Below, in pieces: positions 235 through 35,755 of a DNA stretch of 38,479 nucleotides. Positions within the stretch are counted from its first letter, which is position 1; every line of letters begins with the position of its first letter. The stretch is taken from the NCBI GenBank assembly GCA_964485935.1, contig CAZALG010000002.1, positions 1 to 38,479 on the forward strand, given 5' to 3'. The position numbers and the translations under genes were made by a program. The notes beneath the pieces were generated by a model, which was not told the DNA's origin, did no database searches, and saw only the letters and a program-made list of their open reading frames with translations. Origin of the DNA: an uncultured bacterium (GTDB lineage: Bacteria; Hydrothermota; UBA3072).

Positions 235-262
235 TTTCGTGTATTTAGTGTGTTTCGTGGTT
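235..262 (-). repeat. micro-tandem array, 9 nt x3 ending in GTGGTT (TTTCGTG TATTTAGTG TGTTTCGTGGTT), preceded by the G-rich complement of the C-box (223-234)
   Basis: Direct reading; 242-262 matches 29248-29268 at 20/21 positions. Confidence 0.75.
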
Positions 263-280
263 AAAAAAAAACAAATAAAG

Positions 281-312
281 AATCTTACGTCAATCTTGTG
301 TAATCTGTGGTT
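281..312 (-). repeat. micro-tandem array, 10 nt x3 ending in GTGGTT (AATCTTACGT CAATCTTGTG TAATCTGTGGTT)
   Basis: Direct reading; 289-306 is the exact reverse complement of 19648-19665 (18 nt). Confidence 0.75.
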
Positions 313-1069: not shown

Positions 1070-1175
1070 GACTAAAAACAAAAACCTCCCCACCAAATTA
1101 ATCTCACACGAAGACACAAAAAAAAAGAGAAATTATGTTGTTTCCCCAACTCCACCCCAATTTTTACACATATAA

Positions 1176-3033: not shown

Positions 3034-3184
3034 TATTATCCCTCCCAATATTTCTGTTTTTACAATCTGGCTAATAAAATCTATCTATAATAACCCATAT
3101 GTCAAGTTAAATTTTGTTCTGCCTACCATTATTTTATTAATTACGTCAGCAAGAATCAGAGGGGATACCTGACCAGTGAAAGTA

Positions 3185-3213
3185 TTGACAGAATTGTGCG
3201 CTATGATTATACT
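3185..3213 (+). promoter_or_regulatory. sigma70-like promoter (TTGACA-N17-TATACT)
   Basis: Perfect -35 at 3185-3190 and -10 at 3208-3213, upstream of the 3286 gene. Confidence 0.55.
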
Positions 3214-3285
3214 TTACAGGCGGATATTAAAACTGAAAAGCGTTTGAATTGCTTAAAGTACGAATACTAAAAAAAGGAGATGCAT

Positions 3286-3894
3286 ATGTCAAAGAAAAGA
3301 TTTTCCAAACTGGCTATTTTGTTCCTAACATTTCTTTTATCGAAATCTCTTTTTCTGATAGGAGGTGAACGCCAGGGGTTTATCTGCACCGTTAACCTGG
3401 GTTATGGATTTACCAAATATCCGGAGAAAATGCAGTACTGGAGTTCAGCAGAATCTTCTGAGGATAAAATCAAAGGGGGAATCTCGATGATTGGCAAAAT
3501 AGGTTATGCCCCAAATAATCATTTGATGATTCTTCTTATTTCACCTTCGGTTTACTTCAGAAAAGAAGTAGATTCTGATAAGAAAATAATAGATAATATG
3601 TTATTCGCTCTGGGTATCAGTTACTATTTGAATGAATTTCATCCCTCCGTCTATTTCGACGTAGCTGTAGGTCTCGCTATGTGGTGGTTACCTTATGAAA
3701 CTGAAGGAAATATAGAAGATTTAGATATCCATTTGGGTATGGGAGGAACTTTAGGGGTAGGCTATGAATTTACTCACAGATGGAGTATAGAAAGCAATTT
3801 TCACTATAACCGCTTCAGCTTCAATCGAAATAATGTCGATATAACAGCGAATACTCTTTCCTGTTCGATTGTATTAAGGTATATATTTTATTAA
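3286..3894 (+). CDS. outer-membrane beta-barrel (OmpA-like barrel / porin family) protein
   Basis: Signal peptide, alternating Gly/aromatic strands, C-terminal ...LRYIFY. ATG at 3286 sits 6 nt after GGAG. Confidence 0.5.
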   Translation: MSKKRFSKLAILFLTFLLSKSLFLIGGERQGFICTVNLGYGFTKYPEKMQYWSSAESSEDKIKGGISMIGKIGYAPNNHLMILLISPSVYFRKEVDSDKKIIDNMLFALGISYYLNEFHPSVYFDVAVGLAMWWLPYETEGNIEDLDIHLGMGGTLGVGYEFTHRWSIESNFHYNRFSFNRNNVDITANTLSCSIVLRYIFY

Positions 3895-3956
3895 AATGAT
3901 AATCTTAGCTTCCGTTTTTGTTTTGTGTATATAAGAAAGAGCTTTATCATTAAAAG

Positions 3957-6212
3957 ATGTTTTTGTTTATTTATTTAATCTTAAGTGCTGGTACATACAA
4001 AGTTGTAATGGGTAAAGTATTTGACGCAATCTCAAAAGAACCTCTGCCCATGGTCAACATTGTGGTTGAAGGAACCGAAATGGGTACTACTACAGACAAC
4101 GATGGATATTACAGCATAATACTCCCCGATACACTAAAAAAAGTCAAACTTGTTTACTCTATGATGGGATATAAAAAAGTTGAGAGAGAGAGATTTTTTT
4201 TCGGCAAGGATTACGTAAAGGAAGATATAGCGATGCGAATAACCACTTTGAAATCGCAGGGTATATTGGTATCCGCAAGAAAGGAAAGATTTAAGGAATC
4301 AGCAACCATTACACCCGTTTCTTTGTCAACAGAAGACCTACTAATTCTTCCTTCTCTTTATGAAGGAGATTTAATGCGTACGTTAGAGGCTCTTCCAGGA
4401 ATCACAAAAGCTTCCGATCACACAACTGAAGTGGCGGTAAGAGGAGGAAGCCCAGACCAAAATCTGATTTTACTCGATAATATACCAATATTAAAACCAT
4501 TTCATTTAGGCGGCAATTTTTCCGCTTTTAACCTTAACGCAATTAAAAACATTGAATTGTATAAAAGTGGAATTCCGGTGGAATATGACGCATCTCTTTC
4601 TTCTGTTCTAGATGTTAAAACAAAAGGAGTGAATCGAGACATAAAAGGACTTAATGGTATTTTTTCCCTGGGACTTTTATCTGCCGGAGCAACTATTGGC
4701 GGTCCTGTGCCCTATCTAAATACGAATTTTCTCTTTACCGTCAGGAGAACTTATTACGACAAAATAATCCCAGAGGAAATGCCTTACTATTTCTATGATG
4801 GATATTTACATATTGAAAGTGATATAACTGACAGGTGGAATGCTATTTTAAGTGCTTATAGTAGTAGGGATTTCTATGATTTGAGGGATGAGGAAAATGA
4901 AGAAGTACAAATTATAGGGCTGGATTGGGATAATAAGGCCTTAGGACTAAATACATTTTATGCTGGAAGTGATGAATCTTTACTTCATTTTTCAATCGGG
5001 TGGAGTAAACATAGTTTTCATTTTAGTTTGATGGATACCATTTATGTTACAAACGGTACCATCGATGCTGTAACTGTTGGGACTGACTATACTCGTGCAT
5101 TCGGAGGGCATAAAGTGAAGTCTGGATTAAAGGAAGAGTATCGCCCTTTTAAATATGACATTAGTATGGATATGGGTATAAATTATGAATACCAGAATAT
5201 ATGGAGCAACAGAGTAATGGGTTTTATCGAAGACGAATTTTCTCCTAAAAAAGACTTGCTTTTCTCCGGGGGAATATCTTTAACACATTACTATTCTCAA
5301 ATTGAAGATTTCAACCAGAGTGAAAACGAATTGTTTGTATCTTACAGGTTGTCTGCAAAATATTTTTTAAATGAAATAAAAGCTCTTACAGTCTCTTTTG
5401 GTAATTACCATCAATATGAAGTTCCTTTAATTCCCGGAGAATCAGTGAGTGGAGGTACGAGTTCTATCTTTTACTATTTAGTTCCCCTTGGTGGAGAATA
5501 CTACCCTGAAGAAGCCCAGCATGTAAATCTTGGTTACGAAGGCTGGTTGAACGAGTCCTTCTATTTTTCACTTGAAGGGTACTACAGAATTTATAATAGA
5601 TTGTATAAAATGAGAGAGGAGTCCGAAATCGAGATCGAAAACGCTAACGATTTCTACAGAACGATGTTTGATGAAAACGAAGGTGACGCCTATGGTATGG
5701 ATTTTTTGTTAAAAAAAGAGATAGGAAAAGTAAGAGGTTGGTTTTCTTACACATTCCTTAAATCGCTTATAAAATCTGACAAAGGGTATTATCCTTCGAT
5801 ATGGGACCGAACCCACAATCTGTATTTGGTACTTTTTGCTATTCTTCCTAAAGAATGGGAAATCGGTATTCAGTTTGCTTTCTCAACAGGTAATCCATTT
5901 ACCCCCACCCTTTGCAGATACCTCTATAGAAATCCAGCCACACCTCATGACAATGATGATACCGGTTGGATGGAGCTGCAAGGAGAAAAAAACTCGGTCA
6001 GGTTTCCCTCTTATCTGCGTTTAGATATCAGCGCCACCAAGACCTTTCACTTTGGTAATAATGAAGCGGATCTTAAAATTGGCTTATACAACGCCCTGAA
6101 TCGTGAAAATGTGGTATTCTATTACTATGATTATGACGAGGAACCACCTGTTAAAGAAACTGTCGGCATGGTTCCTCTTTTACCGGCTCTTGAAGTCATC
6201 TATAGATTCTAA
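3957..6212 (+). CDS. TonB-dependent receptor with N-terminal carboxypeptidase-regulatory-like domain
   Basis: GKVFD...PLPMVNIVVEGT..GTTTDNDGYYSI (CarboxypepD_reg-like), plug-like VAVRGGSPDQNLILLDNIPI, long beta-barrel, terminal aromatic ...VIYRF. Confidence 0.7.
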   Translation: MFLFIYLILSAGTYKVVMGKVFDAISKEPLPMVNIVVEGTEMGTTTDNDGYYSIILPDTLKKVKLVYSMMGYKKVERERFFFGKDYVKEDIAMRITTLKSQGILVSARKERFKESATITPVSLSTEDLLILPSLYEGDLMRTLEALPGITKASDHTTEVAVRGGSPDQNLILLDNIPILKPFHLGGNFSAFNLNAIKNIELYKSGIPVEYDASLSSVLDVKTKGVNRDIKGLNGIFSLGLLSAGATIGGPVPYLNTNFLFTVRRTYYDKIIPEEMPYYFYDGYLHIESDITDRWNAILSAYSSRDFYDLRDEENEEVQIIGLDWDNKALGLNTFYAGSDESLLHFSIGWSKHSFHFSLMDTIYVTNGTIDAVTVGTDYTRAFGGHKVKSGLKEEYRPFKYDISMDMGINYEYQNIWSNRVMGFIEDEFSPKKDLLFSGGISLTHYYSQIEDFNQSENELFVSYRLSAKYFLNEIKALTVSFGNYHQYEVPLIPGESVSGGTSSIFYYLVPLGGEYYPEEAQHVNLGYEGWLNESFYFSLEGYYRIYNRLYKMREESEIEIENANDFYRTMFDENEGDAYGMDFLLKKEIGKVRGWFSYTFLKSLIKSDKGYYPSIWDRTHNLYLVLFAILPKEWEIGIQFAFSTGNPFTPTLCRYLYRNPATPHDNDDTGWMELQGEKNSVRFPSYLRLDISATKTFHFGNNEADLKIGLYNALNRENVVFYYYDYDEEPPVKETVGMVPLLPALEVIYRF

Positions 6213-6225
6213 AGGAGGATTGGTC

Positions 6226-6969
6226 TTGAGATGTAATTTTATACTCACACTCTTTTTAACTTCCTTTTTATTTGTTTCCTGCGAAAGCGTCACGGAAGTC
6301 CCTTTCGAGCACAAGTACTTAATCTATCTGGTTCTTAGGCCGAATATGAAATTTCAAAAAGCTTATGTGGATTCAACCTATAAGTTGACATCTACTCTTT
6401 TAGAAGGCTTTAAAGGTATATCAGACGCAGAAATATTCGCAATTGATGAGGAGCAAGACACTTTTAAATTCCGTGAGTCGGATACGATCGGTTTATACTA
6501 CAGTGATGATTCCCTGTGGGTAAAATATAGTAACCAATATATTATTCAATTAAACGTTGAAGGGCATCAAATAGAAGAAGAAATAACTGTTCCAGACTCT
6601 CTTTTTATATATTCCCCTTCCAATGGAGACACAATCTCTCTGGATGATCCTGAAATTGTTTACTGGAACAGCTGTGAAGGGTTTTTTGATAACATGTATA
6701 CTGCTCGTGTTTTTTTCGAAGGAGAATTAGACTCTTTTGGTTTTTCTTTGACAACCCAAGATACGTCTCTGGACGTTTTATCAGCCAGATATCTATTCCC
6801 CAATGTTGATACTTTTTATACCTTAGCAGTCATGGCTATGGATGAAAACTGTTTCAAAGCTGATAAAGCCAACATTAACTTTGATTACGACCAGATAAGT
6901 GCGGATTTTGCAATAGGGGTAATCGGCGCAACCGTTTTCGATACGATCAAGGTCTGGGTTACCGAGTAA
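6226..6969 (+). CDS. DUF4249-like lipoprotein partner of the TonB-dependent receptor
   Basis: Lipobox FLFVSC. TTG start 7 nt after AAGGAGG (6212-6218). Placement directly after a CarboxypepD_reg-type receptor is the typical DUF4249 context. Confidence 0.45.
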   Translation: MRCNFILTLFLTSFLFVSCESVTEVPFEHKYLIYLVLRPNMKFQKAYVDSTYKLTSTLLEGFKGISDAEIFAIDEEQDTFKFRESDTIGLYYSDDSLWVKYSNQYIIQLNVEGHQIEEEITVPDSLFIYSPSNGDTISLDDPEIVYWNSCEGFFDNMYTARVFFEGELDSFGFSLTTQDTSLDVLSARYLFPNVDTFYTLAVMAMDENCFKADKANINFDYDQISADFAIGVIGATVFDTIKVWVTE

Positions 6970-7906
6970 GGTTACTTTCAATATAACCAGCCTTCATATA
7001 ACTCTTATAAATAATAAGTAAAAGAGCCAATCTTTCCTGAACCCGAAGGGTAAAAAGCGGAAGAATCTTTTGTAACCCAAGCGCATAAGGAATAAACGAA
7101 TGAGTATTTTTTACCAACAAAACCCCTTTATCTCTTAAATTAATAGTTTGGTTATAAATCTCCCTCACAAGATTTATATCGATTTTTGAGTAATTTCCGT
7201 GTCCGGGTAGAATCAACTCGGGTGAGATTTTCAAAATCTTCTTCAAGGAAGAAATTGCGTCGTCGATATCGGAAGACGGCACATTCAATACCGCCGGCCG
7301 CTTAAAAGAAAAGGTCGCTATAAGGTCGCCTGTGATAAGTGCAGAATCAAGAGAAAAGCCAACTTCATCGAGTGTATGACCGGGAAGAAAAAGAACTTTG
7401 ATTCCATATCGAATTTCCCCATCAGAAAAACAATCATCAACTCTCACAGCATGACTACCTATCGAAAGAAATTTTCCATAAAATTTAACCAGATAACGAA
7501 CCAGAGCTTCAATTCTTTTCCTTTTTTCTACATTTGCAGGATATAATCTCTTCAAGATCTCGCCATTTACCTTCTCACTTTTAATAAGACCACGAATAGG
7601 AGGCTCCATTTCAAGAAAATTTTTTGCTATTGGATGGCAAACAATTTTTATTTGTTTCTCTTGAAGCAGGTAATAAGCTAACCCCGTATGGTCAGGATGG
7701 TTATGCGTAAACCATATTTCATCGATATTTTTTACTTCTATTCCGGCTTCTCTTAACAAAGGTTTAAACGCCCTTATTTTCATAACCGGATTATAGCCAG
7801 GATCTACCAGTATATTCACCTCTCCCTTTATTAGAGTTGTGTTGGACGAGGGAACCTTCCTTGAATAGAAATATATTTTATCGTTAACTTTTGTTACTTT
7901 ATTCAC
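6959..7906 (-). CDS. MBL-fold metallo-hydrolase
   Basis: HNHPDHTG (HxHxDH) motif; GTG start; 11-nt convergent overlap with the previous gene. Confidence 0.8.
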   Translation of the reverse strand: MNKVTKVNDKIYFYSRKVPSSNTTLIKGEVNILVDPGYNPVMKIRAFKPLLREAGIEVKNIDEIWFTHNHPDHTGLAYYLLQEKQIKIVCHPIAKNFLEMEPPIRGLIKSEKVNGEILKRLYPANVEKRKRIEALVRYLVKFYGKFLSIGSHAVRVDDCFSDGEIRYGIKVLFLPGHTLDEVGFSLDSALITGDLIATFSFKRPAVLNVPSSDIDDAISSLKKILKISPELILPGHGNYSKIDINLVREIYNQTINLRDKGVLLVKNTHSFIPYALGLQKILPLFTLRVQERLALLLIIYKSYMKAGYIESNLTR

Positions 7907-7917: not shown

Positions 7918-7946
7918 ATCGTAGCTGTTTTTTTCTCCTTTGTCAA
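7918..7946 (-). promoter_or_regulatory. sigma70-like promoter for the MBL hydrolase (TTGACA-N17-TACGAT)
   Basis: Read on the minus strand: -35 at 7946..7941, -10 at 7923..7918. The predicted TSS lies about 5 nt before the GTG start. Confidence 0.45.
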
Positions 7947-7970
7947 CCTTCAAAAAACTAAACTGTAATT

Positions 7971-7998
7971 AACCACAAAGATCACAAAGGACACAAAG
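7971..7998 (+). repeat. micro-tandem array AACCACAAAG ATCACAAAG GACACAAAG, followed by C-box CCCCTCCACCCC (7999-8010)
   Basis: Direct reading; inverted partner at 8132-8159 (24/28 identical). Confidence 0.85.
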
Positions 7999-8131
7999 CC
8001 CCTCCACCCCAACTTTAATTTATTTCTTCAAAAACTCTTCCAAACTAAAGAAAATCCCAGAAAGGATTAAACAAGATTAACGGTATTTTTATTTAAGTAA
8101 CAAATTATTTATTTAAATAAAAAATTAAAAT

Positions 8132-8159
8132 CTTTGTGCTCTTTGTGTACTTTGTGGTT
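8132..8159 (-). repeat. micro-tandem array (reverse complement AACCACAAAG TACACAAAG AGCACAAAG)
   Basis: Direct reading; the first 19 nt are identical to 19682-19700. Confidence 0.85.
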
Positions 8160-8270
8160 CAAATTTTTTAAACTTATGCTCTTGATATTTTACATTATTT
8201 AAATAAATTTAAATATTAAATTTATTTAAAATTATCGAGTATAAATCTAACCTCAGAGGGAGATAAATAT

Positions 8271-9275
8271 ATGAAAGTCTTATTCATTGGAGGAACAGGT
8301 GTTATCAGCTCAGCATGTGCCGAACTGGCAGTCGAAAGAGGTTTTGAACTTTATCTTTTAAATCGAGGTAAAACTAAAAGACCTGTCCCAAAAAAAGCGC
8401 ATATTTTACGCGGAGACATTAGAGATAGAGCTTCAGCTGAGTCAGCTATAGGAAACAGAACATTCGATGTTGTTGTAAACTGGGTCGCTTTCACACCCGA
8501 ACACATAAAAAGAGATCTCGAGTTATTTGGCGGCAGGATAGGGCAATATATATTCATAAGTTCAGCCTCCGCCTATCAAACTCCACCCAAAAAACTTCCT
8601 GTCACCGAATTTACTCCTTTGTCAAACAATTTCTGGAAATACTCAAGGGATAAGATTGCCTGCGAAAAACATCTACTACAAGCTTACCGAAAAGGCCATT
8701 TTCCTGTAACTATCGTACGCCCATCTCACACCTACGACTGTACACTACTTCCTATGCATAACAAATACACATTGGTGGACCGTATGCGGAAAGGGGAAAA
8801 AGTCATCGTACATGGAGACGGAACTTCACTATGGGTACTAACACATCACAGGGATTTTGCAAGGGGTTTCGTAGGTCTAATTGGCGACTCACTAGCCATA
8901 GGGGAATCTTTCCACATAACTTCAGATGAACTGCTTTCATGGAACCAAATCTACGAAATACTGGCCTATGCTGCAGGAACTGAAGCCAATATAGTCCATG
9001 TACCTTCAGAGTTTATAGCCTCATTTGACCCTGAGTGGGGTGCGAACCTTCTAGGCGATAAATCTCACAGCATGATATTTGATAATTCAAAGATAAAACG
9101 GTTTGTCCCAGATTATACCGCAACTATCCCCTTCTTCACTGGAGCGCAGGAAATTATTAGTTGGTATAACGCGAATCCTTCAAGGCAAATAGTGGATGAA
9201 AAGGAAAATCAGATGATAGATAAAATAATTGCAAGGTATGAAATGGCGCTACCGCATAGAAAAAAGAAATCCTAA
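8271..9275 (+). CDS. NAD-dependent epimerase/dehydratase (extended SDR family)
   Basis: N-terminal GGTGVISS Rossmann motif, 334 aa, GAGGGAG RBS. Confidence 0.75.
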   Translation: MKVLFIGGTGVISSACAELAVERGFELYLLNRGKTKRPVPKKAHILRGDIRDRASAESAIGNRTFDVVVNWVAFTPEHIKRDLELFGGRIGQYIFISSASAYQTPPKKLPVTEFTPLSNNFWKYSRDKIACEKHLLQAYRKGHFPVTIVRPSHTYDCTLLPMHNKYTLVDRMRKGEKVIVHGDGTSLWVLTHHRDFARGFVGLIGDSLAIGESFHITSDELLSWNQIYEILAYAAGTEANIVHVPSEFIASFDPEWGANLLGDKSHSMIFDNSKIKRFVPDYTATIPFFTGAQEIISWYNANPSRQIVDEKENQMIDKIIARYEMALPHRKKKS

Positions 9276-12549: not shown

Positions 12550-13806
12550 CTACCTCCTTATAAGTGCCGCGCCGAATCCCCCATCATAAAAGGGATAGCC
12601 GGGAAGATTCCGAATAAAGGGATCCTCCTTGCATGCGCATTTAACAATAAAATCAGGATTTTCTTCTAAAAACCATTGTACCTGTTTTTCGTTTTCCTGC
12701 GGAAGAATAGAACATGTTGAATATACCAAAACTCCGTTCTTATTCAAATTCTCAGCAGCAGATTTTAACATCTCTCTCTGTAAAGCAACAAGCCTGTTTA
12801 AAGATGTAAGGTTAAGGTTCCATCTGAGTTCGCCTTTTTTCCCCATAACACCCGTGCCAGAACAAGGTACATCCAAAAGTATCCTATCCGCTTGGGCAAC
12901 CCTAAAATATTTTACATCACCCTTAATCGGATAAACGCTCTTTATACCCAATCGCTCGGCATTGCTGACCACCATATAGAGATCTTTTTTATCAACAGAC
13001 AACACGATTCCCTTATCTCCCATAATTTCAGCTATACCGGTACTCTTTGTACCGGGAGCAGAACATAAATCGAGTATAATTTCGTCCTCTTCGGCAGAAA
13101 GAATCTCCGTGTTCATTGTCTGAGTAACACCCTGAATTTGAAAATAACCTCTTTTAAAGCTATTACTATAAACAACACCACTCTCTGTCAAGAGATTATA
13201 TTCTCTCCCCTCTATTTTTTTCGCATCAAAACCTTCTTCTTTTAAATTTTCAAGCACTTCCCCGGGTGTAGACTTCAATCTGTTAACTCGAATCGTTGTA
13301 ACAGGTGGACGGTTACTCTCTCTTAATATATTTTCCGTTTTCTCGCCATATTCATCCATCAATAGGCGAACCAAAAACTCCGGGAAAGAGTAGAACGTAG
13401 ACAAATATTTTAAAGGTTCCTCAGGATAAGTAACAGGATGGAGATTTCTAAGGACAGCATTTACAAGGGATGCAGTCCCGTTATGCCCGTATTTTTTTGC
13501 AAGATTTACAGATTCATTTACCACAGCGTGATCTGGGTCGCTACTTACGAGCAGCCCATAAGCTCCTTCTCTCAGTATATTTCTAATAGGCAAAGGCAAA
13601 CTTTTAAGTTTTTTATTCTTTAAATGTTTTTCCAGAATGTAATCAAGTCTCTTAACCATCTTAACTGTCCCATAATAATAATCATAGGCTTTCTGTATAT
13701 CCTTATCTACTTTTTCTCCTTTCCGTAATTCTGTAAAATTTTTTAAAGTCTTTCTCCCGCTTTCAAACTCGATTAAAGCCTTTAAAGCCAATTCGCGTCC
13801 ATTCAT
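12550..13806 (-). CDS. rsmB: 16S rRNA (cytosine967-C5)-methyltransferase
   Basis: NusB-like N-terminal domain, DLCSAPGTKS SAM motif, DVPCSGTG and YSTCS catalytic Cys motifs. Confidence 0.85.
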   Translation of the reverse strand: MNGRELALKALIEFESGRKTLKNFTELRKGEKVDKDIQKAYDYYYGTVKMVKRLDYILEKHLKNKKLKSLPLPIRNILREGAYGLLVSSDPDHAVVNESVNLAKKYGHNGTASLVNAVLRNLHPVTYPEEPLKYLSTFYSFPEFLVRLLMDEYGEKTENILRESNRPPVTTIRVNRLKSTPGEVLENLKEEGFDAKKIEGREYNLLTESGVVYSNSFKRGYFQIQGVTQTMNTEILSAEEDEIILDLCSAPGTKSTGIAEIMGDKGIVLSVDKKDLYMVVSNAERLGIKSVYPIKGDVKYFRVAQADRILLDVPCSGTGVMGKKGELRWNLNLTSLNRLVALQREMLKSAAENLNKNGVLVYSTCSILPQENEKQVQWFLEENPDFIVKCACKEDPFIRNLPGYPFYDGGFGAALIRR

Positions 13807-19019: not shown

Positions 19020-19464
19020 TCTTTTTAAAAAACTTTCTCAGCAAATTTGCAGATTCTTCCTTTAAAATACCGGATGCGACCTCAAATTTCCAGTTCCAAT
19101 CTTTATTCCTCACGTCGATCACAGAACCAAAAGCCCCGAATTTTTCGTCACTCGCCCCATACACCACCCTGCTTATTCTTGCCTGAACCACAGCACCCGC
19201 ACACATAAGGCAAGGTTCGAGTGTAGAATACAGAACACTGCCATCTAATCTCCAATCTCCAATAGAATTAGCAGCTGCAGTAATAGCTATAATTTCGGCA
19301 TGAGCAGTAGGATCTTTAAGGGTTTCTTTCCTGTTTGCTCCTCTACCAATAATAGCACCATTTTTAACAACAACAGCTCCAACGGGAACCTCCTCATTGC
19401 TAAAAGAGTTCTCTGCCTCCTTCAAAGCTTCCCGCATCCATTTTTCATCTTCCGCCTTATTCAT
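19006..19464 (-). CDS. tadA: tRNA-specific adenosine-34 deaminase
   Basis: HAE and PCLMCAGA zinc motifs. Start set at the internal ATG (MNKAEDEKWM...), because the upstream 45 codons of the tracked ORF run through tRNA-Arg. Confidence 0.9.
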   Translation of the reverse strand: MNKAEDEKWMREALKEAENSFSNEEVPVGAVVVKNGAIIGRGANRKETLKDPTAHAEIIAITAAANSIGDWRLDGSVLYSTLEPCLMCAGAVVQARISRVVYGASDEKFGAFGSVIDVRNKDWNWKFEVASGILKEESANLLRKFFKKRRDG

Positions 19465-19485
19465 ATAAATTTTTTCGTCAACAAG

Positions 19486-19640: not shown

Positions 19641-19671
19641 AAACACGAGATTACACAAGATTGACACTGAT
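19641..19671 (+). repeat. micro-tandem array, 10 nt x3 (AAACACGAGATT ACACAAGATT GACACTGAT)
   Basis: Direct reading; 18-mer shared with 289-306 (reverse complement). Confidence 0.75.
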
Positions 19672-19681
19672 AAAAAATTTA

Positions 19682-19709
19682 AACCACAAAGTACACAAAG
19701 GTCAGAAAG
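19682..19709 (+). repeat. micro-tandem array AACCACAAAG TACACAAAG GTCAGAAAG
   Basis: Direct reading; 19-nt identity with the reverse complement of 8141-8159. Confidence 0.8.
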
Positions 19710-19795
19710 TTTTTATTTGTTTCTTAAGCTAATAGCAAACGGCCAGCCACTAAAAGCTATGCTTTAAAACTAATTAAACCGTCAATAAAAAGTAT

Positions 19796-24227: not shown

Positions 24228-24249
24228 GGGGGGCTACCTCCCATTTTTT

Positions 24250-24267
24250 ACCACAGCACACACAGAG
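24250..24267 (+). repeat. two-unit micro-array ACCACAGCA CACACAGAG
   Basis: CACAG at 24252 and 24261 (9-nt period). Read on the minus strand, GTGGTA lies 21 nt upstream of the ArsR -35. Confidence 0.5.
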
Positions 24268-24389
24268 CAAAAAATAGATTCTTACGTAACTTCCTTATCT
24301 TAAAAACAAAAATCCGTTGTAAATACTTGTGAATACCAGATTTGTAATGTTTGAACACAAAATTTTGGGAAGGCAAGCAACTTTGCCTC

Positions 24390-24419: not shown

Positions 24420-24422
24420 GAG

Positions 24423-24536
24423 TATCTCTTCGGGGTTGGGTGTAATTCCCAACCGGCGGTGAAAGCCCGCGAGGAGCAATCCTGATTCGGTGGAATTCCG
24501 AAGCCGACGGTGAAAGTCCGGATGAGAGAAGGGAAT
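24423..24536 (+). promoter_or_regulatory. FMN riboswitch (RFN element) aptamer
   Basis: CTCTTCGGGGTTGGGTGTAATTCCCAACCGGCGGTGAAAGCCCGCGAG...GGTGGAATTCCGAAGCCGACGGTGAAAGTCCGGATGAGAGAAGGG closely follows the conserved RFN core. It lies directly upstream of ribD. Confidence 0.9.
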
Positions 24537-24545
24537 TATATTCAG

Positions 24546-24568: not shown

Positions 24569-25633
24569 ATGAATAAATTAGATGAATATTTTTTAAAAGA
24601 AACATTTGAACTTGCGAGAACCGCTGAAGGAATTGTTTCACCCAATCCTCTTGTTGGAGCCTGTGTAGTAAAGAATGGAGTTATTGTCGGTAGAGGTTAT
24701 CATAAAGGGCCGGGAACTCCGCACGCTGAAGTCGAAGCTATCACAGAAGCCGGAGACAAAACTAAAGATGCTACTTTATATGTTTCTCTCGAACCTTGTT
24801 GTCACCACGGAAATACACCTCCATGCGTAGAACTTATCGAATCCAAAGGAATAAAAAGGGTTGTTGCCCCAATAAAAGACCCCAATCCTCTTGTCAATGG
24901 CAAAGGTTTTAAACGCCTGAGGAGTAAAGGAATCCAGGTTAAAACAGAAATTCTCGAAGAAGAAGCGAAGAAACTCAATTCTTTCTACTTAAAATATATT
25001 ACAAAGAAAACCCCTTATGTTATTTTAAAAGCGGCCATGACCCTTGACGGGAAAATCGGAGATCCTAGCAGAGGGATTTACAAAATATCAGGCGACGAGT
25101 CTCATAAGGAAGTTCACCGCCTGAGAAATAAAGTAGATGCAATTCTAATTGGTGTTGGAACTGTCTTGAGTGATAATCCAGCCCTGACAGTACGGAAAGT
25201 TAAAGCAACCAAACAACCCTACAAAATCATAATAGATCCCACTCTTAAGTGCTCTGCGGACGCAAAAATTTTCCGGGGAGGAGGTAAGGTCATTCTTGTT
25301 ACGACTAAAAAAGAAGCAAAAGAAAAATATCCTGATGCAGAAATATGGATTTTTAAAGAAAAAAACAGCTTCATAGATGTTAAAGAGATTTTGAAAAGAG
25401 CAGGCGAAGAGAACATCACTTCGATTGTGGTGGAAGGGGGCAGTAAAACTTTTACTCAATTCGTTAAATCTGAAACAGTGGATAAATATCTTCTTTTCTT
25501 TTCTCCTTCTTTTATAGGTAAAGGAGTTTCTTTAATCGATTCCCCTTTGAAAAGAGTTTTTTTAGATGCAAGTGTAGGGAAAATAGGAGAAGATATTTTA
25601 ATAGAGGCTAATAATGTTTACGGGAATAATTAA
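24569..25633 (+). CDS. ribD: bifunctional diaminohydroxyphosphoribosylaminopyrimidine deaminase / 5-amino-6-(5-phosphoribosylamino)uracil reductase
   Basis: HAEVEA and PCCHHGNTPPC deaminase motifs; C-terminal reductase domain (TLDGKI). Confidence 0.9.
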   Translation: MNKLDEYFLKETFELARTAEGIVSPNPLVGACVVKNGVIVGRGYHKGPGTPHAEVEAITEAGDKTKDATLYVSLEPCCHHGNTPPCVELIESKGIKRVVAPIKDPNPLVNGKGFKRLRSKGIQVKTEILEEEAKKLNSFYLKYITKKTPYVILKAAMTLDGKIGDPSRGIYKISGDESHKEVHRLRNKVDAILIGVGTVLSDNPALTVRKVKATKQPYKIIIDPTLKCSADAKIFRGGGKVILVTTKKEAKEKYPDAEIWIFKEKNSFIDVKEILKRAGEENITSIVVEGGSKTFTQFVKSETVDKYLLFFSPSFIGKGVSLIDSPLKRVFLDASVGKIGEDILIEANNVYGNN

Positions 25634-26195
25634 AAATGTAATCAAGCTTGATAGAGTAAAAAAGAATAAAAACGATATGGTGATTCACTTAATGCTGCCT
25701 TTCCCCGCGAACACGGGAGACAGTGTTTCTGTGAACGGTGCCTGTTTGACGGTTTCTAAAATATTGGGGAAAACCTATATCTTCGATGTTTCTTCCGAAA
25801 CTCTTTTCCGCAGCAATCTTTCTAATCTCAATGTTGGCGATTGGGTAAATGTCGAACCTTCACTCACCGCAGGGGATTTACTTCACGGACATCTTGTTTA
25901 CGGGCATATAGACGGAGTCGGTAAAATTTTGAGCATAAAGAAAACCCGGGATACCTATGAATTTATCCTTGAATATCCTTCCGAACTTTCAAAGTTTCTT
26001 GCCGAAAAAGGCAGCATTGCGCTCGATGGAGTTTCTCTTACTATTACCGAAGTAAAAGAAAAAAGTTTTAAGATTGTTATGGTTAAGCATACTTTATTAA
26101 ATACAAACTTTAAATACAAAAAAAGGGGAGATATCGTGAATATTGAAATAGATCCACTGGCAAGATATTTGCAAAGATTATTGGAGTTCAAATGA
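25614..26195 (+). CDS. ribE: riboflavin synthase
   Basis: MFTGII N-terminus, duplicated lumazine-binding repeats (SVNGACLTV / ALDGVSLTI). Confidence 0.9.
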
Positions 26196-27397
26196 AGAAG
26201 TTTAGTTCCATAGACGATATAATTGAAGACGTCAAAAAAGGTAAACCTCTTATTGTGGTAGACGATGAAGACAGAGAAAACGAAGGGGATTTTGTAGTGG
26301 TTTCAGAGAAAGTTACTCCCGAGACAATAAATTTTATGGCAAAAGAAGGTCGTGGTCTGATTTGTGTTTCTCTTACCCAGAAAAGATTAATTGAACTTGA
26401 ACTTCCCCTAATGACTACAAATATTACGGCCCGCCACGGAACGGCTTTTGCTGTTTCGGTTGATGCTAAAGATGGCACAACTACTGGCATTAGTGCGTTT
26501 GATAGAGCTGCAACCATTAAAAAACTTATTGATCCCAAAACAAAACCTTCGGACCTTTCAAGACCCGGGCATGTTTTTCCTATAATGGCAAAAGAAGGTT
26601 GCACCTTAAGAAGAGCAGGCCACACTGAAGCTTCTATAGACATTGCCAAGATAGCAGGACTATATCCTTCAGCTGTTATTTGCGAAATAATGGATGAAGA
26701 CGGAACTATGGCAAGGTTGCCGCGTCTCCTCGAGATCGCGGATAAGCATAATCTTAAAATAACTACAGTAAAAAGTCTGATAGAGTACAGACAAAAAAGA
26801 GAAAAACTAATTAACAGAGAAACAGAAGTTGCCTTTCCTACTCATCATGGAAAATTTCGGCTTATTCCTTACACAAATGTTATAGATGAGAAGGTCCATA
26901 TTGTTCTTGTCAAAGGAAAAGTAAGTAATCAAAAGGATGTTTTGGTTAGAGTTCATTCGGAATGTTTAACCGGAGACACGCTTCGTTCTCTCCGGTGTGA
27001 TTGCGGAGAACAACTTGTGAATGCCCTAAAAGCTATACAGAAAGAAGGTAGAGGCGTTTTTCTGTATATGAGACAAGAAGGAAGAGGGATAGGGCTGCTA
27101 AATAAACTTAAAGCTTATAGTCTTCAAGACGAAGGATTCGACACAGTCCAGGCAAATGAAAAGCTGGGCTTCAGGATGGACCTACGCGACTATGGAATAG
27201 GAGCTCAGATACTAAAAGATCTTGGCTTATCAACCATTCGTCTTCTAACAAATAATCCGAGAAAAATTGTGGGTTTGGAAGGTTACGGTCTCAAAGTAAC
27301 CGAAAGAGTTCCAATAGAAATCGAACCGACGGAAGAAAATATTAAATATCTAAAAACAAAGAAAAACAAATTAGGTCATACACTTAAAAATGTTTAA
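26192..27397 (+). CDS. ribBA: bifunctional 3,4-dihydroxy-2-butanone-4-phosphate synthase / GTP cyclohydrolase II
   Basis: [10 protein letters not shown] (DHBP synthase) and HSECLTGD...CDCG (GCH II zinc site). Confidence 0.95.
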
Positions 27398-27409
27398 GAA
27401 GGAGGGTTT

Positions 27410-27874
27410 ATGGAATACAAGGGTTTAATCAAAGGAAAAGGAATTAAAATAGCAATTATTGTACCCCGATTTAACTCCAGAGTAACAGGGATATTAAAAG
27501 AAGGAGCGATGGACTGTTTAAGACAGCATGAAGTAAAAGAAGAAGACATCGATACATATTGGGTCCCGGGTTCTTTCGAGCTACCTATGCTTCTTTCCAA
27601 GGTTGTAAAAATTAAAAAATATGATGGGTTTTTAGTCCTTGGAGCTTTAATCAGGGGTGAAACACCTCATTTTGATCATCTCGCGACGGAAACAACAAAA
27701 GGTATAGCCAAGATATCACTCGAGATAAAAAAGCCTGTAGGGTACGGGGTTATAACTGCCGACACAGAAGAACAAGCTTTAAGTAGAGCGGGGATGAAAG
27801 TCGGCAATAAAGGATGGGATGCGGCTTTGACAACTCTTGAAATGATAAACCTTTACAAAGAAATAGAAAAGTGA
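27410..27874 (+). CDS. ribH: 6,7-dimethyl-8-ribityllumazine synthase
   Basis: IAIIVPRFN...VPGSFELP...GETPHFD signature; GGAGGG RBS. Confidence 0.95.
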   Translation: MEYKGLIKGKGIKIAIIVPRFNSRVTGILKEGAMDCLRQHEVKEEDIDTYWVPGSFELPMLLSKVVKIKKYDGFLVLGALIRGETPHFDHLATETTKGIAKISLEIKKPVGYGVITADTEEQALSRAGMKVGNKGWDAALTTLEMINLYKEIEK

Positions 27875-29247: not shown

Positions 29248-29268
29248 TATTTAGTGTATTTCGTGGTT
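29248..29268 (-). repeat. GTG-form micro-array TATTTAGTG TATTTCGTGGTT
   Basis: 20/21 identical to 242-262. Confidence 0.8.
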
Positions 29269-29282
29269 GAATAAAATGTTTT

Positions 29283-29311
29283 TTTCTGTGTGTTCTCTGT
29301 AACTTTGTGGC
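29283..29311 (-). repeat. GTG-form micro-array TTTCTGTG TGTTCTCTGT AACTTTGTGGC
   Basis: Direct reading; 10-nt period. Confidence 0.6.
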
Positions 29312-29411: not shown

Positions 29412-29417
29412 AAAGTT

Positions 29418-32024: not shown

Positions 32025-32361
32025 TTCTGAAAGGAGAGTACTCTTTTTTATTATTGCTGTACTTCTTGTAGGAAGCTTAACGGGGTTTTTTCATTCTAAT
32101 CCTGAAGAAAAAACAGAAAAACTTACATCCTTCCCTATAAGTATTAATTCTGCAACCGCTGAAGAATTAGTTCTTCTTCCGGGTGTAGGAGATGTAATAG
32201 CAAAAAGAATATTGGAATATAGAAGCAAAAATAATGGTTTTAAAAGCAAAGATGAAATTATGAGAGTTAAAGGTATAGGTAAAGTTAAGTTTGAAAAAAT
32301 AAAGGACAAAATTTGTGTTGAAAATCCAGAGCAAACAAAAAAAGAAAATAGCCACAGATGA
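32014..32361 (+). CDS. comEA: ComEA-family helix-hairpin-helix DNA-binding protein
   Basis: TM anchor, then INSATAEELVLLPGVGDVIAKRILEYR...VKGIGKVKFEKIK (two HhH motifs). Confidence 0.75.
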   Translation: MLSDSERRVLFFIIAVLLVGSLTGFFHSNPEEKTEKLTSFPISINSATAEELVLLPGVGDVIAKRILEYRSKNNGFKSKDEIMRVKGIGKVKFEKIKDKICVENPEQTKKENSHR

Positions 32362-32380
32362 ACACAGATAAAAACAGATT
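32351..32380 (+). repeat. micro-tandem array GCCACAGATG AACACAGATA AAAACAGATT
   Basis: Exact 10-nt period. The comEA TGA stop (32359-32361) lies inside unit 1. Confidence 0.8.
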
Positions 32381-32424
32381 AAAAAGTTTTGTTGTTTTAA
32401 ATAAAAAAATTGGGATGGGATGGT

Positions 32425-32454
32425 ATCAGTGTTTATCAGTGAAAATCAGTGGTT
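32425..32454 (-). repeat. micro-tandem array ATCAGTGTTT ATCAGTGAAA ATCAGTGGTT
   Basis: Exact 10-nt period. It ends 7 nt before the GGAGG of the next gene. Confidence 0.85.
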
Positions 32455-34474: not shown

Positions 34475-35674
34475 ATGTTACCAGTTGAAATTAGTTCAGG
34501 TATATATTGGATAGGTGTAGACGACCGCACAACGGATTTGTTTGAAGGTCTCTGGCCTATAACAAGGGAAGGCGTCTCATATAATTCTTACCTGATAAGA
34601 GATAAGAAGAAAGCTATAATAGACATGACTAAATCTATCAAGGGAGACGAATTCTTTGACAATATTAATGAGATAGCTGCTATAAAAGATATAAATTATA
34701 TTATCATAAATCATATGGAACCCGATCACTCAGGAATACTTAGAACTTTCCGAAAAATTTCTCCTAACGTAAAAATTTTAGGCTCACAGAAAACAAAAGA
34801 AATGCTCCAAGATTTTTATGGTATAAAAGACAATGTGGAAGTCGTGAAGGACGGCGATGAAATTTCACTGGGAGAAAAGACTCTGAGATTTTTTTCTACC
34901 CCAATGGTTCACTGGCCGGAGACAATTATGACTTACGAGGTTTCTAACAAGATTCTTTTCTCCTGCGATGCCTTTGGAAGTTTTGGAGTACTTGGAGGAA
35001 GTATTTTCGACGATGAATGCAAAAATCTTAACTTTTATATGGATGAAGCAGTCCGTTATTACGTTAACATTGTTGCCAAATTCAGCAAAATGGTTCGGGG
35101 GGCCATAGATAAACTAAAAAGTGTTCCTGTCGAGGTAATCGCCCCTTCCCATGGAAGAGTATGGAGAAAAGATCCAGGCATGATAGTAGAACTATATAAG
35201 AAACTTGCGAGTCTTGAGAGTGAGCAAGCCGATTCCGGAGTTACTTTAATATACGGTTCGATGTACGGAAATACAGAAAACATGATGAACGCGGTAGCTC
35301 AAGGTATTTCCGGGGCAGGTATTCCTCTTGAAATATTCGACGTTTCCAGAACTCACGTAAGTTACATCCTACCTTCCCTATGGACAAAAAGTGGTGTAAT
35401 GATTGGGGCGCCGACTTACGAGGCAGGTCTTTTCCCAACTATGGGAGACGTACTTCGCATGGCAGAACTTAAGCGCATAACAAATAAAAAATTCGCGATG
35501 TTTGGTAGTTACGGGTGGAGTGGCGGAGCTTTAAAAGAAATAAAAAACATAGTCGAACCTGTAAAATGGGAGCTTACCGATTCTTTCGAGTTTAAAGGAG
35601 GCCCTTCAAAAGAGGAACTCAAAAAAGGAGAAGAATTCGGCAGAAAATTTGGCAAACTACTTAAAAATAATTAA
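34475..35674 (+). CDS. fprA: FprA-family A-type flavodiiron protein
   Basis: HMEPDHSG (HxExDH di-iron site) in an MBL-like domain, followed by a flavodoxin-like domain (LIYGSMYGNTE). Confidence 0.85.
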   Translation: MLPVEISSGIYWIGVDDRTTDLFEGLWPITREGVSYNSYLIRDKKKAIIDMTKSIKGDEFFDNINEIAAIKDINYIIINHMEPDHSGILRTFRKISPNVKILGSQKTKEMLQDFYGIKDNVEVVKDGDEISLGEKTLRFFSTPMVHWPETIMTYEVSNKILFSCDAFGSFGVLGGSIFDDECKNLNFYMDEAVRYYVNIVAKFSKMVRGAIDKLKSVPVEVIAPSHGRVWRKDPGMIVELYKKLASLESEQADSGVTLIYGSMYGNTENMMNAVAQGISGAGIPLEIFDVSRTHVSYILPSLWTKSGVMIGAPTYEAGLFPTMGDVLRMAELKRITNKKFAMFGSYGWSGGALKEIKNIVEPVKWELTDSFEFKGGPSKEELKKGEEFGRKFGKLLKNN

Positions 35675-35720
35675 CCACAGAGGCCACAGAGAAAAACAAA
35701 AAAACACAGAGAACACAGAG
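35673..35720 (+). repeat. micro-tandem array AACCACAGAG GCCACAGAG (A-rich linker) ACACAGAG AACACAGAG
   Basis: CACAGAG at 35676, 35685, 35705 and 35714. The fprA TAA stop (35672-35674) is part of the TTAACCAC anchor. Confidence 0.85.
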
Positions 35721-35755
35721 AAGCATTACACTTTTCCTTGTATAATTTTAAATTT

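Follow-up and report, generated by a model that had tools for sequence, protein, structure and literature searches.

Bacterial MITEs such as the Correia elements of Neisseria are intergenic, non-coding sequences of 100–300 bp with terminal inverted repeats. They usually have a target-site duplication, a cognate IS transposase and near-identical copies, and elements of the Correia type lie beside promoters or in operons, alter expression and differ in presence or absence between strains. Tandem sites of the OmpR/PhoB type and UP elements are direct-repeat operators or upstream promoter parts. MraZ boxes consist of AAAGTG[T/G] repeats with a single occurrence in M. genitalium (PMC8475190). The RAYT-associated REP/BIME/REPIN repeats are abundant, palindromic, intergenic and tagged at one end with GTAG or CGTC (Di Nocera et al. 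2013, PMC3733652). They form inverted dimers with the tags outside or inside and 20–100-bp spacers, occur also as singletons and clusters, vary between strains and have been found in the PVC superphylum, Cyanobacteria, Chloroflexi and Proteobacteria; a GTGG tag variant has been reported only for the GTAG-20 elements of Opitutus terrae (PMC3733652). Sporadic intergenic tandem repeats that cross phyla have been described as TAACTGA heptamers (MacGregor 2015, PMC4679880), cyanobacterial STRR and Nostoc heptamer repeats (bioRxiv 10.1101/2022.06.06.494920). These occur in Bacteroidetes, Cyanobacteria and some Gammaproteobacteria as sets of 2–6 copies that lie mainly between genes, in many cases immediately before a start codon, and their function is unknown.

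In the window, the whole stretch of 38,479 nucleotides that was analysed, a pair of inverted arrays lies between the genes of an MBL-fold hydrolase and an epimerase:

7918..7946, minus strand: MBL-hydrolase promoter-like site TTGACA-N17-TACGAT, outside the element and kept in relatives
7947..7970, minus strand: outer flank AATTACAGTTTAGTTTTTTGAAGG, from the left arm to the MBL -35 hexamer
7971..7998, minus strand: left arm, CTTTGTG TC CTTTGTG AT CTTTGTGGTT, with the GTGGTT cap toward the MBL-fold hydrolase gene
7999..8131, no strand: AT-rich spacer of 133 nt between the arms, beginning with CCCCTCCACCCCAA beside the left arm
8088-8127, within the spacer: tandem repeat of 2 x 20 nt
8132..8159, plus strand: right arm, CTTTGTG CT CTTTGTG TA CTTTGTGGTT, with the cap toward the epimerase gene
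8160..8173, plus strand: outer flank of the right arm, CAAATTTTTTAAAC, A-rich then T-rich, copied along with the arm at 19671-19681
8182..8209, plus strand: epimerase promoter-like site TTGATA-N16-TAAATT in the conserved block TTATGCTCTTGATATTTTACA, outside the element

Each arm comprises three CTTTGTG cores with a 9-nt period and a GTGGTT cap. The two arms, 133 nt apart, are complementary at 24/28 positions (86%), differ only in two linker dinucleotides and direct their GTGGTT ends at the nearer gene, all of which agrees with the earlier note on this DNA. With up to three mismatches, the 28-nt arm pattern occurs three times in the window, the third copy being at 19682-19709 on the minus strand, and not once in 100 dinucleotide-preserving shuffles. 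A lone arm is G/T-rich and without self-complementarity, and base-pairing is possible only between paired arms; a single-strand fold prediction indeed pairs them (-45.6 kcal/mol, z = -6.4). The whole element spans 189 bp, contains no ORF or Pfam match, and its spacer (7999-8131) has no promoter-like site. It thereby shows the terminal inverted repeats and the short non-coding body of a MITE, and no target-site duplication is visible at its outer edges (TAATT/AACCAC versus GTGGTT/CAAAT). A coding repeat at 7971-8159 is ruled out, as the locus lies between genes and is bounded by stop codons on every side. An exact look-up of the window's epimerase returned no record. We interpret 7971-8159, with moderate confidence, as a member of a family of small, dispersed, non-coding repeats of MITE/REPIN-like character; it sits between two conserved promoters, and its promoter proximity seems to be a by-product of where such repeats persist rather than a built-in activator site.

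Related arrays are found at further sites of the window:

14-46 and 235..262, the latter on the plus strand: array TTTCGTGTA TTTAGTGTG TTTCGTGGTT at 235..262 with its inverted partner at 14-46, 73% complementary and 189 nt apart
290..312, plus strand: array CAATCTTGTGTAATCTGTGGTT, with 20 nt between it and the downstream -35 hexamer of birA
1100..1127, minus strand: short CACGAAG/CACAAA array downstream of birA, with 2 units here versus 4 in relative L120
19643..19667, minus strand: second array near tRNA-Arg, CAATCTTGTGTAATCTCGTGTT, a copy of the array at 290-312
19671..19732, minus strand: half-element upstream of tRNA-Arg, 82% identical to 8109-8170, comprising the array 19682-19709 with about 22 nt of sequence on its inner side and about 11 nt of flank on its outer side
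24249..24270, minus strand: array ending in CTCTGTGTGTGCTGTGGTA, with 21 nt between it and the downstream -35 hexamer of arsR
29250..29311, plus strand: two arrays upstream of maf, TTTAGTGTA TTTCGTGGTT and then TTCTGTGTG TTCTCTGTAA CTTTGTGGC
32350..32454, no strand: intercistronic inverted pair; one arm, GCCACAGATGA ACACAGATAA AAACAGATTA, overlaps the upstream gene's stop codon and the second, TATCAGTGTT TATCAGTGAA AATCAGTGGTT, leaves 7 nt to the GGAGG ribosome-binding site that follows
35673..35722, minus strand: interrupted CTCTGTG array of 4 units between convergent genes, with its AACCAC cap overlapping the TAA stop codon of fprA

Arms, arrays and the 62-nt half-element are thus repeated at unrelated loci of the window, though not the whole 189 bp. 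Unit sequences diverge greatly between arrays of the one genome (CTTTGTG, CTCTGTG, TTTCGTG, ATCAGTG), and other arrays of the lineage have periods of 8–10 nt compared with 9.0 at 7971-8159. The window holds at least 12 arrays in 38 kb; in the comparison of array density, 8 were counted in the window and 6 in 119 kb of relatives. The intergenic regions of this lineage are also rich in other short tandem repeats.

A scan of species-representative genomes for TTTGTGNNNTTTGTGGTT gave at least 140 matches at a minimum of 119 loci. Among the matches listed, about nine in ten are intergenic arrays of 2–5 units and the remainder resemble, by inspection, chance matches in coding sequence; the carriers include Bacteroidota, Acidobacteriota, Planctomycetota, Verrucomicrobiota, Chloroflexota, Desulfobacterota, Gammaproteobacteria, Cyanobacteria and Methanothrix. 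Of the matches listed, 36/140 have an inverted partner of the same type with outward caps, compared with only 5 with inward caps, and 19 of these 36 outward pairs have a spacer of 100–145 nt (full range 14–279 nt). Singletons and clusters occur beside the inverted pairs, and many arrays are solitary. Caps lie close to genes at starts and ends alike, whereas inner ends have a median distance of about 140 nt from genes. Longer copies exist as well: three copies of about 175 bp within 2.6 kb of Chryseobacterium ginsengisoli and one in another Chryseobacterium can be aligned end to end with 75% column identity and no consistent target-site duplication, and a Phycisphaerales genome has two copies 2.3 kb apart with 79% identity. 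In random metagenome loci we counted 4 arrays in 321 kb (1.2 expected), in plasmids one weak match (Calothrix) and in 5,426 E. coli genomes none. The same scan of viral contigs yielded mostly coding or chance matches, with inverted partners for only 2/122. Some of the pattern matches outside this locus, especially those in viral contigs, are codons of CxxC zinc ribbons. Neither the window nor 18 cross-phylum loci matched an Rfam family at the gathering threshold, a relaxed threshold gave only chance-level matches, and searches by sequence string and by concept retrieved no published description of CTTTGTG/GTGGTT arrays. The repeat family thus appears to be widespread and undescribed.

We compared the window with 11 relatives from candidate division WOR-3 and examined 157 kb of WOR-3 DNA in all. 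The core promoters are conserved across these relatives, whereas the arrays are replaced, altered in unit number or missing. No GTG array stands upstream of the epimerase promoter in L120, L123, L127 and L332, all of which conserve the promoter core; L332 has no array anywhere in the MBL-epimerase spacer, and L125 keeps the birA promoter without any array. Unit numbers at orthologous sites are 4, 2, 1 or 0 at fprA and 2 versus 4 downstream of birA, and at one orthologous site the unit type is swapped. The L125 sequence orthologous to the inter-arm spacer 7999-8131 is about 64% identical to it, and L125 has the decayed cores CTTGGTG and CTTAGTG. The MBL-epimerase spacer exists in two haplotypes with a mosaic distribution relative to gene identity, and a match of 198 nt, which includes the idiosyncratic arm CTTTGTGyCTTGGTGACTTAG, links the element upstream of birA in L120 with the one between MBL and epimerase in L125. 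No convincing clean empty site was found.

The earlier note had placed the GTG cores at about -59, -68 and -78, in the zone of UP elements and class I activators; under such a model the arrays would be upstream promoter elements, bound by an activator or RNA polymerase alpha-CTD, that stimulate the flanking sigma-70-type promoters. Its four spacings of 20–24 nt are accurate: GTGGTT-N24-TTGACA-N17-TACGAT for the MBL hydrolase, N22 to TTGATA with a weak -10 (TAAATT) for the epimerase, N20 to TTGCGA and then TATAAT for birA, and GTGGTA-N21-TTGACA with TATAGT for arsR. Five independent WOR-3 promoters have the anchor 20–24 nt upstream of the -35 hexamer (birA 20, epimerase 22, arsR 21, MBL 24/23, one L125 promoter 21), the AAAnTTTT flank after GTGGTT resembles the consensus of the distal UP subsite, and conserved cores with variable linkers are also typical of protein-binding sites. 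The expectation of a non-flat anchor-to--35 distance holds within the lineage (157 kb of WOR-3 DNA), but the distance is not fixed, as it varies from 13 to 29 nt in relatives (24, 23, 17, 15, 13 and 13 nt for the MBL promoter and its orthologues; 22, 23 or 29 nt for the epimerase promoter). A gap of 41 nt for tRNA-Arg could not be reproduced, since a good promoter (TTGACA 19599-19594, N16, TATATT) sits 82 nt from GTGGTT and about 43 nt from the end of the second, different array (19643-19667). Nor do the cores lie on one face of the DNA, one per helical turn: at a period of 9.0 bp versus 10.5 bp per turn each core is rotated by about -51 degrees, which leaves about 100 degrees between the first core and the third around the helix.

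Orientation and location speak in the same direction. Roughly half of the anchors point at gene 3' ends, namely 10/24 in WOR-3 and, among the cross-phylum matches listed, 64/116 (52 face starts). The A-rich then T-rich flank after GTGGTT is alike at gene starts and gene ends and is therefore part of the element rather than of the promoters. One array ends next to a ribosome-binding site, another, located between convergent genes, shares bases with a stop codon, and in Bacteroidota the arrays are only 10–25 nt away from start codons. With gaps that vary, arrays that are lost while promoters are kept and caps that so often face 3' ends, a role as dedicated UP-element or class I activator parts is unlikely, and the promoter-architecture reading as a whole is only partly supported.

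Alternatively, the arrays could bind an abundant host protein, for example of the AbrB/MraZ type or nucleoid-associated, that starts binding at GTGGTT and then spreads along the GTG repeats; they would then act as boundary insulators, roadblocks or topological barriers, and their dispersal would be secondary. Such binding would agree with the strict polarity of caps toward the adjacent gene and with a core that is conserved across phyla while linkers are free. There is also a precedent, as the passage of PMC8475190 that cites Fisunov 2016 describes MraZ as binding a direct-repeat series of AAAGTG[T/G]. However, only one site of MraZ boxes, located in the mraZ promoter, has been reported (PMC8475190), compared with many arrays per 40 kb here. 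Moreover, the arrays are patchy even among close relatives and decay at orthologous sites as seen in L125, the unit types within one genome are very heterogeneous with periods from 8 to 10 nt, and no candidate protein was identified. We consider this explanation rather improbable.

A role at the RNA level, with the arms paired in a long hairpin for transcript stability, termination or processing as in REP/BIME and Correia elements, draws on the predicted pairing of the arms, on many members that are near-perfect palindromes with short loops (L008, L109) and on pairs inside operons and right after stop codons. Yet the pair at 7971-8159 lies upstream of both promoter-like sites, so that neither transcript should contain it. 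Many other arrays are solitary or paired with a non-complementary unit type (L329, L042), no Rfam family matches and no consistent U-tract follows the hairpin, which makes this role distinctly improbable. Purely local slippage, i.e. VNTR-like filler of independent origin at each site, immobile and functionless, is strongly disfavoured and in our view highly improbable: the varying unit number at orthologous sites, arrays with identical linkers (L119, L115, L034) and the many other short tandem repeats in the lineage's intergenic regions are in its favour, but it leaves unexplained the same cap, core and flank across phyla, the conserved caps-outward pairing with 100–145-nt spacers, the non-repetitive arm variants and whole elements common to unrelated loci, and perfect cores with differing linkers.

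Several other identities were considered. The arrays are at many sites, none of which adjoins mraZ, and are not the MraZ operator. A UP element or class I site by position would have a fixed distance to -35, a promoter-only location and 10.5-bp phasing, none of which the arrays show. An oriC/DnaA-box cluster was dismissed because TTWTNCACA occurs 5 times versus 4.05 expected with none in 7918-8187, and the sign change of the GC skew near 24 kb follows gene strand. An inverton, which would share the inverted repeats, appears improbable, since 7999-8131 lacks a promoter-like site and the window proteins scanned include no invertase. Of the eukaryotic Sm site (AAUUUGUGG), Chi-like G-rich motifs, CsrA sites and Rho rut sites, none fits all data.

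Under the dispersed-repeat reading, the element would sit in DNA that can be lost, between two divergent promoters of the sigma-70 type that are conserved independently of each other, its arms being tandem 9-nt units (a YTTTGTG core plus about 2 variable linker bases) with GTGGTT outside, followed by the A-rich then T-rich flank. Units would be gained and lost, most simply via replication slippage, and whole arms or cassettes might be swapped between loci and lineages via transposition or recombination. Elements would survive wherever no function is broken, so that capped ends would be pushed against stop codons, ribosome-binding sites and upstream promoter edges; the cap would be found so often 20–24 nt from -35 because surviving elements abut functional boundaries. 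The intrinsic AAAnTTTT flank would then fall at the position of the distal UP subsite and may modestly affect transcription, a case of co-option rather than design. Some observations count against this reading. Heterogeneous unit sequences within one genome are unusual for transposase-binding ends, the conserved 7-nt core with variable linkers could reflect binding of a host protein, and the 20–24-nt clustering at five promoters would also fit a real promoter role. A transposase or RAYT gene was found neither among the window proteins scanned nor in the 157 kb of WOR-3 DNA, and the 1.1-kb arm-flanked segment of L088 contains no transposase.

In other taxa, the same capped arms, with caps outward, bracket a gene of about 125 aa for a GxxExxY (PF13366/TIGR04256) PD-(D/E)XK nuclease at an arm-to-arm distance of 388–426 nt (L069, L095, L336, L346). 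Of these loci, L336 had been picked solely for its protein homology, and a protein-based scan led to L346. The window and the 157 kb of WOR-3 DNA contain no GxxExxY gene. We know of no activity of GxxExxY proteins on such arrays, and the papers listed on GxxExxY/PF13366 proteins make no link to repeats. The family, PDDEXK_3, is of unknown function, occurs in prokaryotes and viruses and has undergone multiple transfers (Steczkiewicz et al. 2012, PMC3424549), and its reported bacterial and archaeal distribution matches that of the arrays. Since the arms bracket this gene in other organisms, the arrays are probably sites recognised by the nuclease family or by the machinery that moves the cassettes, although the link comes from a handful of loci, none of them of this lineage, and the protein is no known transposase. 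Array-only copies such as 7971-8159 would then be non-autonomous derivatives of nuclease-gene cassettes. A more far-reaching idea, which we put forward tentatively as possible rather than likely, is that GTGGTT-capped nonamer arrays are recognition or processing sites of PF13366 nucleases and that both jointly form a new class of mobile nuclease-encoding cassettes of about 0.5 kb in bacteria and some archaea, whose array-only derivatives populate and remodel intergenic regions and incidentally provide UP-like flanks, hairpins and boundaries. The other gene families that recur near arrays are ordinary abundant ones (ABC transporters, aminotransferases, LytTR two-component systems).

If the dispersed-repeat reading is correct, an apparent promoter architecture in an uncultured lineage would be the footprint of a repeat family that shapes intergenic DNA in many phyla. 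The arrays would then be liable to be mistaken for operators in Bacteroidota, Acidobacteriota, the PVC superphylum, WOR-3 and others, and would need masking or modelling in motif discovery. Elements that abut promoters with their A/T-rich flank could tune expression and create strain-level variation. In addition, the arrays would give the GxxExxY proteins, which form a very large PD-(D/E)XK family without known function, a concrete substrate to test.

Among the traits of the known systems, dispersed copies over the full length, as in MITEs, are seen in Chryseobacterium, in Phycisphaerales and between L120 and L125, while the window repeats only arms and the 62-nt half-element. An autonomous partner may be seen in the GxxExxY cassettes that share the arms, though none is present in the WOR-3 DNA. 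The arrays differ from MITEs in that no duplication or transposase was seen, the arms are composed of sub-repeats and the unit sequence varies widely between copies. MraZ, OmpR and PhoB operators are similar in that a GTG(G/T)-centred core recurs every ~10 bp directly upstream of a promoter, but such sites are one or few per genome, fixed and conserved, whereas the window has at least 12 arrays in its 38 kb, placed at both the starts and the ends of genes and not conserved. Like REP/BIME repeats, the arrays occur as inverted dimers, singletons and clusters, with spacers of 14–279 nt that are mostly 100–145 nt. However, a REP unit is a stem-loop or imperfect palindrome of 20–40 nt tagged with GTAG or CGTC, whereas an arm consists of non-palindromic tandem 9-nt units capped with GTGGTT, and no RAYT gene is among the window proteins scanned. 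The TAACTGA/STRR heptamers, finally, are contiguous, identical and uncapped, with one inverted set reported, whereas the arrays combine a 9–10-nt period, variable linkers and a GTGGTT cap with a prevalence of inverted pairs.

We find that the element at 7971-8159, between the divergent MBL hydrolase and epimerase genes, is best supported as a non-autonomous member of a family of dispersed, array-capped repeats of a MITE- or REPIN-like kind. Its two inverted arrays match at 24 of 28 positions, as the earlier note had described; they are separated by 133 nt, and a third array copy with one mismatch is located at 19682-19709 on the minus strand. The array pattern found no match in 100 shuffles of the window sequence. 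The window is from a bacterium of candidate division WOR-3 (FCB superphylum), to whose genomes the best-named homologues of its epimerase and FprA belong. The genes and arrays concerned are:

6959-7906, minus strand: MBL-fold hydrolase gene, divergent from the epimerase gene
7971-7998, minus strand: left array, CTTTGTG TC CTTTGTG AT CTTTGTGGTT
8132-8159, plus strand: right array, CTTTGTG CT CTTTGTG TA CTTTGTGGTT
8271-9275, plus strand: NAD-dependent epimerase gene, divergent from the hydrolase gene
32350-32454: intercistronic array pair; the left arm runs over a stop codon, and 7 nt separate the end of the right arm from a GGAGG ribosome-binding site
35673-35722: array in a convergent intergenic region, overlapping the stop codon of fprA

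The window holds at least 12 arrays of 8-10-nt units around an invariant GTG, capped by GTGGTT, GTGGTA or GTGGC and then A/T-rich sequence, each with its own unit prefix (CTTT, CTCT, TTTC, AATC or ATCA). Nine of the 21 GTGGTT hexamers are intergenic (9.6% of the sequence) and 12 coding; eight of the nine end an array, versus none of the 12. Some arrays lie upstream of promoters and others elsewhere, and within the window, unrelated loci carry repeated copies of a half-element (62 nt) and of a second type of array. Immediately at the inner side of arrays there is a recurring C-rich motif, CCCCnCC(A)CCCC, which is G-rich when read on the GTG strand (window 8000-8013, 1145-1160 and 223-234; relatives L120 5655-5665 and L125 9727-9733). 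Further repeats include an inverted pair with 48-nt arms of ~7-nt ATCAAAA/TTTTGAT units flanking the GTG arrays upstream of maf (29092-29139/29321-29368) and six TTTACAA heptamers downstream of fprA (35744-35788), which L327 and L329 retain in part. A GTAG/CTACA-type palindrome at 1172-1242, ATGTAGAACCTGTAG ... CTACATTAACTACATGCTCTACAT, with 24-nt arms of 83% complementarity, lies in the space between birA and a convergent 192-aa gene; it is kept in L120 and looks like a GTAG-tagged REP.

A scan for TTTGTGNNNTTTGTGGTT with one genome per species returned at least 119 loci; 140 matches were listed, roughly nine in ten of them, by inspection, intergenic arrays of 2-5 units. Among the matches listed, C or T just precedes each core and A-rich sequence follows the cap; hosts are isolates of Chryseobacterium, Flavobacterium, Pedobacter, Alkalitalea, Salinisphaera, Endozoicomonas and Calothrix, and metagenome-assembled Acidobacteriota, Planctomycetota, Verrucomicrobiota, Chloroflexota, Desulfobacterota and Methanothrix. 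Of the 140 arrays listed, 36 are paired with an inverted array of their own type, caps outward, with a spacer of 100-145 nt in 19 of these, and caps inward are seen in only five; the window's arrangement is typical for the family. The same scan of viral contigs as a control gave mostly coding or chance matches with partners in 2 of 122 and no C-bias before the core. The family is patchy in distribution: the 38-kb window has eight two-unit arrays, 119 kb from WOR-3 relatives six arrays and 321 kb of unrelated metagenome loci four (1.2 expected), the right arm with its flank had no match in 5,426 E. coli genomes, and a plasmid collection gave one weak hit.

Chryseobacterium ginsengisoli carries a ~175-bp copy in each of three consecutive intergenic regions; these can be aligned over their full length with one another and with a copy from a different Chryseobacterium, at 75% column identity, and have a conserved central hairpin in common. 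In a Phycisphaerales genome, two copies 2.3 kb apart have near-identical four-unit arms, and L120 has, ahead of birA, an element that matches the MBL hydrolase-epimerase element of L125 over 198 nt, including the non-repetitive arm variant CTTGGTGACTTAG. Copying between loci can yield such patterns, those in the window included; independent slippage cannot. Local slippage accounts for changes in unit number, as with the array after fprA, whose unit number across four genomes is 4, 2, 1 or 0, but leaves the family as a whole unexplained. In the Bacteroidales locus L042 (5199-5845), a ~126-nt block occurs in tandem, half the 252-253-nt spacing of strict matches, and CTTCGTG-type and CACAAAG-type arrays alternate head to head (GTGGTT-AT-rich-AACCAC).

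The orthologous spacers of 11 relatives (epimerase identity 80-96%) all retain both core promoters: that of the hydrolase, TTGACA-N17-TACGAT, and that of the epimerase, the block TTATGCTCTTGATATTTTACA. At least two types of DNA lie between them. In the window-like type (L125, L330/L331) the right arm reads CTTTGTGyCTTGGwGmCTTAGTGrCTAAC, and perfect CTTTGTG cores in both arms occur in the window only; the second type (L120, L335, L128, L333/L334) has a different left array and, except in L335, the palindrome TTAAGATTCGAAGAATCTTAA before the epimerase -35 hexamer. This 21-bp palindrome (L120 9876-9896), which looks like an operator, is missing in the window, where an array element holds its space. 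In L332 the spacer is 80 nt long and array-free. Types are mosaic with respect to gene identity: L120 and L330, both 96% relatives, carry different ones. Other sites are just as labile around functional cores that are conserved: at the intercistronic site, two genomes have arrays of the CACAGAT/ATCAGTG type, and another two have the CACAAAG type. Downstream of fprA, L329 carries an insertion relative to the window (12556-13131) with a PemK-family toxin gene, a small upstream ORF and a PD40/Tricorn-like gene; arrays are found at its junctions (13157-13227).

Relatives also differ from the window in gene content. At 3049-6958, between the GH5 cellulase and MBL hydrolase genes, the window has three genes, which encode an OMP beta-barrel protein, a TonB-dependent receptor (with CarboxypepD_reg domain) and a 288-aa ORF product; L120 and L125 lack them at this position, and there the cellulase and hydrolase genes are adjacent. 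The 465 nt between tRNA-Ser(CGA) and tRNA-Arg(ACG) (19020-19484) contain no credible ORF or Rfam match; in L123 and L125, the M6 peptidase gene is instead followed by one for dCMP deaminase. An FMN riboswitch (Rfam RF00050, 113.8 bits; 24422-24537, plus strand) precedes the riboflavin operon (ribD...ribH, nusB; 24569-28296), divergent from an arsR-family gene.

The earlier note read the arrays as upstream promoter parts, with caps 20-24 nt from the -35 hexamer. Its gaps of 24, 22, 20 and 21 nt at four promoters are right. The tRNA-Arg promoter, assigned a 41-nt gap, is separated from GTGGTT by 82 nt; the array ~43 nt away from it is a second, different one. A 9-bp period does not hold the cores on one helical face. 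We made the distance histogram it proposed on 157 kb of WOR-3 DNA, where 12 of 24 caps point toward gene starts and 10 toward gene ends. Five independent start-facing promoters have gaps of 20-24 nt, so the clustering is real in this lineage. The spacing is not a conserved requirement, since orthologous gaps vary (13-24 nt on the hydrolase side; 22-29 nt or array absent on the epimerase side), caps abut stop codons equally tightly (-2 to about 15 nt), and gene starts and gene ends show no difference in the flank that follows the cap, A-rich and then T-rich, which is copied along with the arm. L125 keeps the birA promoter without arrays. The promoter model is possible at lower probability, as are a model of arrays as host-protein boundaries and one in which the repeats act as RNA hairpins. 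The simplest reading of the spacing is that elements would persist up to the edge of a neighbouring function, which may be a ribosome-binding site, a stop codon or, for promoters, the UP-sized boundary on the upstream side; the post-cap flank could act as a fortuitous UP-like sequence. At the maf promoter (29385-29420, TTGACA-N16/17-TATCAT; kept in L327, L328 and L329), the -10 hexamer ends ~6 nt before the ATG, which suggests a leaderless mRNA.

When 730 ORFs near arrays were clustered and checked against Pfam and NCBIfam, the only family repeatedly enclosed by outward-facing arms was GxxExxY (PF13366 PDDEXK_3, TIGR04256), proteins of ~125 aa with a PD-(D/E)XK nuclease fold. The arms are 388-426 nt apart in four loci: L069, L095, L336, picked only via protein homology (P0313), and L346, found among viral contigs by a protein-based scan and with a high-GC host. 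L106 shows the same arrangement on the 5' side, which is all its sequence covers. In a more distant homologue (L347), flanking ATCAGCG/CGCAGAT arrays resemble the window's ATCAGTG/CACAGAT pair, and still more distant ones are flanked by other tandem repeats. No homologue was found in the window or other WOR-3 DNA examined. The family is catalogued without an assigned function, in prokaryotes and viruses, with repeated transfers among bacterial divisions and archaea (PMC3424549). As these coding cassettes have the same arms, they suggest, as a lead, that GxxExxY nucleases may be the cognate proteins of the arrays. In L336-L345, the GxxExxY gene P0313 immediately precedes a diversity-generating retroelement (bAvd, Fib_succ_major target protein, RVT_1 reverse transcriptase), a layout seen again in contigs of many samples. 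In the WOR-3 relative L329 (18723-19094), a PF05635 (23S_rRNA_IVP/bAvd-like) four-helix-bundle gene lies between inverted TCAAGG/CCTTGA arrays of 8-9-nt units, and L120 (6738-6770) and L330 have similar arrays of GAACCCT.

An origin of replication was rejected for the window arrays, and neither known RNA families nor an invertible promoter found support. The papers covered that mention GxxExxY gave no tie to repeats, and GTGGTT-capped nonamer arrays or their GxxExxY link were found nowhere in our incomplete coverage, so that an earlier description is possible. The dispersed repeat belongs formally to neither of the classes it resembles: it has no target-site duplication or known transposase as for MITEs, its arms are not stem-loops and there is no GTAG tag as for REPINs. 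Bacterial MITEs are among the closest known kinds, and STRR is near in kind as a sporadic intergenic tandem repeat. REP/BIME and other tagged palindromic repeats (PMC3733652) are also among the closest, and TAACTGA heptamers (PMC4679880) and Nostoc heptamers (bioRxiv 10.1101/2022.06.06.494920) are further sporadic intergenic tandem repeats. MraZ boxes are like the arrays in their GTG repeats (PMC8475190).
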